Shown piece after piece: positions 14,603 to 15,168 of a stretch of 64,000 nt of DNA. The stretch is from Octopus vulgaris (taxonomy: Eukaryota): assembly GCA_951406725.2 (NCBI GenBank), contig OX597842.1:6138001-6202000 (forward strand), in the 5' to 3' direction. Under the pieces are notes generated by a model, which worked only from the letters and a program-made list of their open reading frames with translations, was not told the origin of the DNA and searched no databases. The position numbers and the translations under genes were made by a program. Position 1 is the first letter of the stretch; each line of letters opens with the position of its first letter.

Positions 14603-14741
14603 GTAGCTATTCTGACCCGTTCCAAGAAGCAGTACTGTGGCGGCACTTTGATCTCTCCTCAATGGGTTCTGACAGCGGCACACTGCATCCGGAAGCGAGG
14701 AAAAGAAGCGCAAAGTCATTGTGCGTGTCGGAGAGCATGAC
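14603..14741 (+). CDS. Same protease, next exon (His57 region); 1-nt frameshift in the A run at 14701-14704
   Basis: Acceptor ttgcag at 14597-14602. Phase-0 join [32 protein letters not shown]. Removing one A gives [17 protein letters not shown]. Confidence 0.9.
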
Positions 14742-15033
14742 TGCATATACATATATATATACATGGTGGCAGAGGTGGTGAGATCAACACAGACTTTTCC
14801 CACATATATATCGATTCCATATATATATATGACATATGCCCTACTGAAACATATATATACATGCATATATACACTATATATACATGCCTATACATCATAT
14901 ATACATAGAGCTATATATATATATATCATTGGTTGGGGCATATATGTATATATGTACATTATTATATACATACACACACATATATATACATATATACATA
15001 TATATATATATGTGTGTGTATATATATATACAC

Positions 15034-15081
<48 letters not shown>
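14742..15081 (+). pseudogene. Corrupted middle of the protease exon: (TA)-like sequence with surviving motif islands; GDSGGP missing
   Basis: Islands gacttttcccac (DFPH-like, 14792), gac...gccctactgaaa (D-x-ALLK, 14831-14849), tgcct (14885) and atcattggttggggc (IIGWG, 14925-14939) occur in canonical S1A order. Confidence 0.75.
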
Positions 15082-15082
<1 letters not shown>

Positions 15083-15168
15083 GCAAATATGGTGTCTATA
15101 CAGATGTGCGCAAATATCTAAAATGGATTTACAAAACAATCGGTAACAACTGTACCAGGCGACCTTAG
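15082..15168 (+). CDS. Protease C-terminus and stop
   Basis: [28 protein letters not shown] matches the S1A GVYT-x-V-xx-YL-x-WI terminus. AATAAA at 15223-15228. Confidence 0.85.

Follow-up and report, generated by a model that had tools for sequence, protein, structure and literature searches.

The last coding exon of a protease gene of Octopus vulgaris reads, as assembled, as if a (TA)n microsatellite had been written across it while short pieces of protease-coding sequence persisted in between. We asked whether this blend belongs to the animal or to the assembly. For this, we analysed a window, i.e. the whole stretch of 64,000 nucleotides around the gene, of which the relevant features are listed in Table 1. 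Comparing the window with an orthologue, with independent sequencing runs and with the rest of the assembly, we find that the TA blend is very likely an error in the assembly consensus, behind which lies an ordinary last exon, and not a piece of the animal's biology. The hidden gene is likely intact.

Table 1. Positions in the window of the protease exons, of the parts of the damaged exon and of the adjoining repeat array.
Feature	Position	Strand	Remarks
Penultimate exon, with activation site R/IIGG and WPWQ	4921..5045	+	100% identity to P0001, 98% to P0002; GT donor at 5046
Last intron, GT..AG	5046..14602	+	closes shortly downstream of a very high-copy repeat ending near 14535
Last coding exon of the protease as assembled	14603..15168	+	566 nt; TAG stop at 15166-15168
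Clean 5' part with the catalytic His (TAAHC)	14603..14741	+	frame shifted by a surplus A at 14701, within an A run
First TA-blended patch	14742..14764	+	not in this form in the run contigs
Intact island GGRGGEIN	14765..14788	+	perfect 24 nt; run contigs depart from the window sequence after 14788
True coding letters mixed with TA; islands DF/FPH, ALLK, CL and IIGWG in shifting frames	14789..14939	+
C-interrupted (TA)n filler in place of ~87 codons, among them those of the catalytic Ser motif GDSGG	14940..15082	+	no coding signal
Clean exon end from KYGVYT to the stop, followed by unique sequence (probably 3' UTR)	15083..15346	+	run contigs identical over the covered parts of 15083-15340
(TA)n array, 3.1 kb, with C interruptions on the + strand over the first kilobase	15347..18485	n/a	probable source of the blended letters

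Protease islands among TA letters

About 1 kb of unique sequence contains the exon, bounded by the very high-copy repeat on one side and the 3.1-kb (TA)n array on the other. In three DNA-sized runs, the read-contig depth was in the millions at 14500-14532 compared to 6-52 in the exon. The exon starts after a good acceptor (CAG/GTAGCT), and at 566 nt it is 139 nt shorter than the 705-nt last exon of the orthologue from Octopus bimaculoides (XP_052833824.1, hereafter P0002). Calculating the fraction of TA/AT steps along the exon, we noticed a rise from 0.07 through the VRVGEHD motif (14721-14741) to 0.68 in the first blended patch, followed by a value of 0.04 in the GGRGGEIN island. The fraction was 0.49 in the mixed part and 0.73 in the filler, and it stood at 0.21 from 15083 onwards. 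Pfam recognised a trypsin domain in the first 32 codons (14603-14698; E 7.5e-10), the only part of the window exon to score. No Pfam match was obtained for 14703-15083, 14848-15165 and 15085-15165, nor for 4920-5045 in the preceding exon. As assembled, the exon retains the His of the catalytic triad, carries the Asp island out of frame and lacks the Ser motif.

We located the islands at 14721 (VRVGEHD), 14765 (GGRGGEIN), 14792-14805 (DF[S]H/FPH), 14838 (ALLK), 14885 (CL), 14925 (IIGWG) and 15085 (KYGVYT). Their order is that of P0002, and the first five intervals deviate from those of the orthologue by +5, -12, -2, -7 and -8 nt. Performing a degenerate-codon alignment to P0002, with 300 peptide shuffles and 300 DNA doublet shuffles as controls, we obtained a score of 48.0 for 14789-14939. 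The peptide shuffles scored -9.8 ± 7.1 (z 8.2) and the DNA shuffles -0.6 ± 7.3 (z 6.7), and in neither set did any of the 300 reach the observed score. The same test gave no signal for 14940-15084, where 96 of the 300 peptide shuffles and 230 of the 300 DNA shuffles reached the score. The first half is thus a genuine blend, and the second nothing but filler, occupying 145 nt where the orthologue has 261 nt (87 codons with GDSGG included).

A first-pass annotation, made from the letters alone, had described protease motif islands at about the spacing of S1A proteases and had proposed a comparison with an orthologue. The collinear placement of the islands on the O. bimaculoides protein, at a score that the shuffles never attained, bears the description out. 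It had also judged the stretch from GWG to GVYT to be too short and devoid of GDSGGP, and we indeed measured 160 nt from IIGWG to KYGVYT against 276 nt in the orthologue (-116), with GDSGG absent. The islands are, however, not "in register" as it had put it, since they are spread over all three frames, and DFPH and D-x-ALLK are unreadable in one frame. Likewise, the seemingly clean part before the TA letters already contains the frameshift at 14701, between TAAHC and VRVGEHD. All the islands that it named were found, but the perfect GGRGGEIN was not among them.

Performing a scan of the window for the blend signature, we found 11 flagged segments of 200 nt among 1276. Three of these lie at the exon and the other eight at 26451-26750 and 28101-28500, two stretches that, on reading their letters, look like ordinary compound microsatellites. 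An imperfect TA patch is also present at 18743-18870, 258 nt beyond the far end of the 3.1-kb array, the blend lying 265 nt before its near end. This patch could be a second blend or simply the head of an ordinary repeat.

The exon in independent sequencing runs

The 5' flank of the exon was found in 20 of the 24 sequencing runs listed, which belong to seven studies and whose data are all contigs. Seven runs, one per study, were compared with the window; the comparison therefore concerns contigs, in which rare variants are lost, and not raw reads. None of the compared runs is known to come from the assembled individual, and near-identical ones may be the source.

Across 14500-14805, four of four runs (studies P1, P2, P3 and P5; organisms coded A, B and C) yielded one contig each that matched up to 14788. 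Each contig departed from the window in 3-4 substitutions and 8 gap letters. None of the four had the additional A at 14701, and the TA letters at 14741-14762 were absent or replaced. Among the ten rows of differences in the exon, eight were common to the four runs and the other two were listed for three; run X1 had the same difference totals as the other runs and the same net loss of 6. When the run differences were applied to the window, 60 of 60 residues became identical to P0002, with no stop codon. Beyond the aligned part, the four contigs continue for 749, 731, 730 and 98 letters, 14789-14805 being unmatched. Thus, the window's TA letters appeared in an exon-spanning contig of none of the four runs over the 5' part, where contigs may miss a rare allele.

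The 3' part was examined in the same way. Before the comparison, we predicted that, with an intact exon, 15085 of the window would fall near letter 713 of the 1020-nt contig from run X1 (depth 21.2), and we found 15083 at letter 711. The exon of the run X1 contig is thus exactly 705 nt long, with 439 nt between 14788 and 15083 compared to 294 nt in the window. This span comes from run X1 as the only run compared at both ends, its two pieces being matched by equal length and depth. The O. bimaculoides last exon, of 234 codons and a stop, has the same length. Over 15083-15340, one contig from each of four runs showed 0 differences in the part covered. The contigs of runs X7, X13 and X17 extend 711, 491 and 214 letters upstream of 15083.

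Compared to the O. bimaculoides trypsin, the window copy is 139 nt short, frameshifted and devoid of GDSGG; no such difference was observed in the run contigs. Judged from the exon length and the orthologues, the catalytic Ser codon is probably present in this species. The contig of run X9 stops at 14599 with 7 letters unaligned, at a place where the upstream exon and the intron end in the same four letters. We take this contig end as a weak hint of spliced message. No run recorded as RNA was among those listed, and the mark "RNA?" on some of them is a guess.

Alternative readings and the proposed route of the error

The first-pass annotation had preferred a consensus or polishing artefact concealing an intact gene and had called for a check of independent data. 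The run contigs, which disagree with the assembly at the TA letters and restore the reading frame and, in one contig, the full exon length, argue for that reading. Its fallback, a real microsatellite conversion of coding DNA, found no support in any of the four runs. Such a conversion would mean that the assembled animal carries a null allele, in which repeated template switching or conversion from the adjoining (TA)n array rewrote the exon piecemeal. The filler is indeed C-interrupted on the + strand like the array, run contigs can hide rare alleles, and no compared run is known to come from the assembled individual. However, the TA letters are absent from the 5' part in four of four runs while the 3' part is identical in four of four. 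The allele would also need about ten small insertions, deletions or substitutions within 62 nt, all toward TA, together with an unrelated run-length error, while its flanks stayed identical; moreover, the haploid assembly would have had to pick that very allele. We know of no mutational process that rewrites an exon piecemeal toward TA in this manner, and we regard a real allele as highly improbable. If true, it would represent a new mutational route by which microsatellites destroy genes. The window could instead hold a decayed duplicate of a gene that is intact elsewhere in the genome, a reading that we consider improbable in the extreme. Each of the two flanks (14600-14745 and 15083-15340) has one match in the assembly and is therefore single-copy, and each run gave a single contig over the exon. 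Searching the assembly with the missing catalytic-Ser segment, we obtained 3 matches among 14 candidates, all of them paralogues of 41-49% identity, and found no close copy of the segment elsewhere. Single-copy flanks and such distant paralogues together indicate that the missing sequence was lost from the assembly rather than moved. Neither the assembly matches nor the run contigs offered support for a duplicate.

As to how the consensus error arose, we lean towards misplaced (TA)n reads stacked over the exon. Noisy long reads carrying (TA)n would have piled up over part of the exon, and the consensus would have followed the exon in its G/C-rich or non-alternating parts and taken TA in its A/T-rich parts, losing about 140 nt. 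Short-read polishing would then probably have failed to anchor in the damaged part. Speaking against mis-stacking, no error was found in the tested part of the 264 nt next to the array (15083-15346), although simple slippage of reads off the array predicts otherwise; this flawless stretch between blend and array may have come from later short-read repair, or from another route. The longest exact match of the filler with at least two G/C letters is 51 nt long, at 15809 in that array, and is weak and of low complexity. In a local-score comparison with the 17 TA arrays of the window, the adjoining array was not singled out (201 versus up to 199 elsewhere). Only the C-bias and the 51-nt match lean toward it.

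We modelled such stacking with a toy majority consensus on three stand-in cores of 440 nt, using six read mixtures with four repeats each. Three true reads and five TA reads gave 333-364 nt, TA steps of 0.35-0.38 and 3-10 islands. With two true reads and six TA reads, the 440 nt shrank to 311-339 nt and the TA steps rose to 0.55-0.60, while the observed blend has 341 nt for 481 and TA steps of 0.57. The TA insert lengths (250-450 nt) were chosen by hand, so the shrinkage is partly built in. At a TA fraction of 0.55, the toy left 0-2.5 islands of at least 10 nt and a purine/pyrimidine alternation of 0.71-0.79, compared to 0.85 observed. The toy consensus gives a similar short, TA-rich blend, and it speaks to plausibility only.

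As the main rival to this route, the error could have arisen at base calling. The self-complementary 3.1-kb (TA)n array would disturb the nanopore transit and produce short, TA-biased calls, which a low depth would admit. The missing 139 nt of the window exon fit this route, as does the extra A at 14701 within an A run, an extra base in a homopolymer run being a typical long-read error. In the available part of one report, inverted duplicated DNA gives incorrect or missed calls and a faster transit (PMC7229812). That part deals, however, with the inverted duplicates themselves and not with unique DNA flanking them, and here the damage begins 265 nt from the array, with a perfect stretch in between. 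We therefore hold a base-calling origin to be unlikely, though far from negligible.

As the accessible text describes it, NextDenovo and ~27.5x nanopore data were used to build the published reference of O. vulgaris, which was then polished with HyPo (PMC10700109); noisy reads of modest depth can thus underlie an assembly of this species. In the part of the HyPo description at hand, repeat k-mers are barred as anchors and weak windows are rebuilt by partial-order consensus; where short-read pieces are lacking, long-read pieces resembling the draft are used (10.1101/2019.12.19.882506). A scheme of this type could leave or even reinforce a TA-rich draft. Consensus errors that noisy long-read assemblies make at repeats are thus the nearest known parallel, although no blend of exon and microsatellite is described in the same part (10.1101/2019.12.19.882506). 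Searching the literature by titles, we found no paper on an exon/microsatellite blend of such kind.

The protease gene, its relatives and its public models

The penultimate exon encodes NYRIIGG, which corresponds to the zymogen activation site R/K-IIGG. A protein search with 4921-5045 returned two proteins among three candidates, namely CAI9743293.1 of O. vulgaris (P0001, 321 aa) and P0002 (426 aa). Upstream of the window, the same contig carries two more exons on the same strand, at distances of 9 and 11.5 kb. The gene resembles the O. bimaculoides "trypsin" isoforms X1 (XP_052833823.1, P0006) and X2 (P0002), with 97-98% identity over the shared N-terminal part. A tandem NAGNAG acceptor at 4918-4923 (TAG, then CAG) lets the exon start at 4921 or 4924, which accounts for the one-residue difference between P0006 (GAVS) and P0002 (GVS).

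P0002 matches Pfam PF00089 (Trypsin) over the entire profile (1-220 of 220; E 5e-65) and contains TAAHC, NDIAL and DSCGGDSGG; the catalytic triad motifs are also present in the contig-derived P0008. The Asp before SC in DSCGGDSGG presumably sets trypsin specificity in the S1 pocket. Judged from the orthologue, the gene product would be a secreted trypsin-like zymogen, cut between R and IIGG, with a His/Asp/Ser triad and an Asp in the S1 pocket. At its N-terminus, P0002 has two W-x-x-W-x-x-C...R-x-R-x-C motifs that we take to be TSP1-like. Pfam found no TSP_1 match in the octopus N-terminus at E up to 10, and an Atlas search with the N-terminal repeats gave no usable match and no name. The gene is thus a single-copy S1A protease of the trypsin family that carries two TSP1-like repeats, and it belongs to a known type of protease in which it is nothing unusual.

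We also checked how widely this layout occurs. Octopus saliva contains S1 proteases, and a venom role for the gene was considered; its same-layout relatives occur in clams, snails, crabs, a beetle, a spider and krill, and nothing was found that ties the gene to venom, so we rejected this role. A HMMER scan of 1.84 billion representatives recovered 102 relatives of the N-terminal part, while a word-index search with residues 1-190 of P0002 returned only two proteins among 22 candidates. We scanned 15 relatives with Pfam, of which 13 were long ones chosen for length and two were short top matches. The trypsin domain was present in 13 of the 13 long proteins, the two short ones had no Pfam match of any kind, and TSP_1 gave no match in any of the 15. 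Seven of the eight relatives looked up could be named, and they come from a bivalve, two snails, a crab, a beetle, a spider and krill (Mya, Nucella, Pomacea, Scylla, Psylliodes, Parasteatoda and Meganyctiphanes). Seven aligned relatives share 37-47% identity with P0002. The octopus gene also resembles the two-TSP-repeat trypsins of protostomes such as SerP11 of Tenebrio molitor, a "TSP" protease for which the accessible part of the paper reports two TSP-type repeats, a basic residue before IIGG, the H/D/S triad and an Asp in S1; the likeness is one of layout only (PMC11172050).

The error has reached the public protein databases. CAI9743293.1, annotated as "serine protease 44-like", ends with 45 residues that match window 14603-14737 exactly, with the frameshifted tail included. 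The model is truncated at 321 aa, before the catalytic Asp and Ser, which indicates that the same error entered the public annotation. Checking the cluster to which the gene belongs, we found five of eight members listed without a complete protease domain. P0001 is frameshifted, P0003 (from O. sinensis) and P0005 (an older model) splice into cryptic intron pieces at window 8718-8750 and 9027-9125, and P0004 and P0007 read into the intron, while the catalytic motifs are found in P0002, P0006 and P0008. The two intron pieces serve as false last exons in P0003 and P0005, which suggests that in these annotations, too, the true last exon was absent or could not be used. With five of eight members incomplete, assembling or annotating the last exon seems to be difficult in several octopus genomes, and reports of lost or truncated genes next to long (TA)n arrays in octopus assemblies need to be checked against reads. 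The gene itself is conserved, very likely intact and biologically ordinary. In this microsatellite-rich genome, a consensus error alone can make an exon resemble a bizarre pseudogene.

The window holds several other repeats and open frames. On the minus strand of the last intron, 12389-13771 is an open frame of 460 codons with a weak GIY-YIG match (E 0.0025, below the Pfam cut-off), which we assume to be the 3' part of a Penelope-like retroelement. A 99-codon frame at 833-1132, also on the minus strand, had no Pfam match at E 0.01; to our eye its motifs recall a mariner-type transposase. A tandem array of about four units of 264-280 nt, each with a (GA)n tract, occupies 41307-42376. Two arrays of a near-identical GC-rich unit of 62-63 nt lie 10 kb apart, at 36516-36848 and 46453-46653, and a related 68-nt unit is found at 43335-43491.
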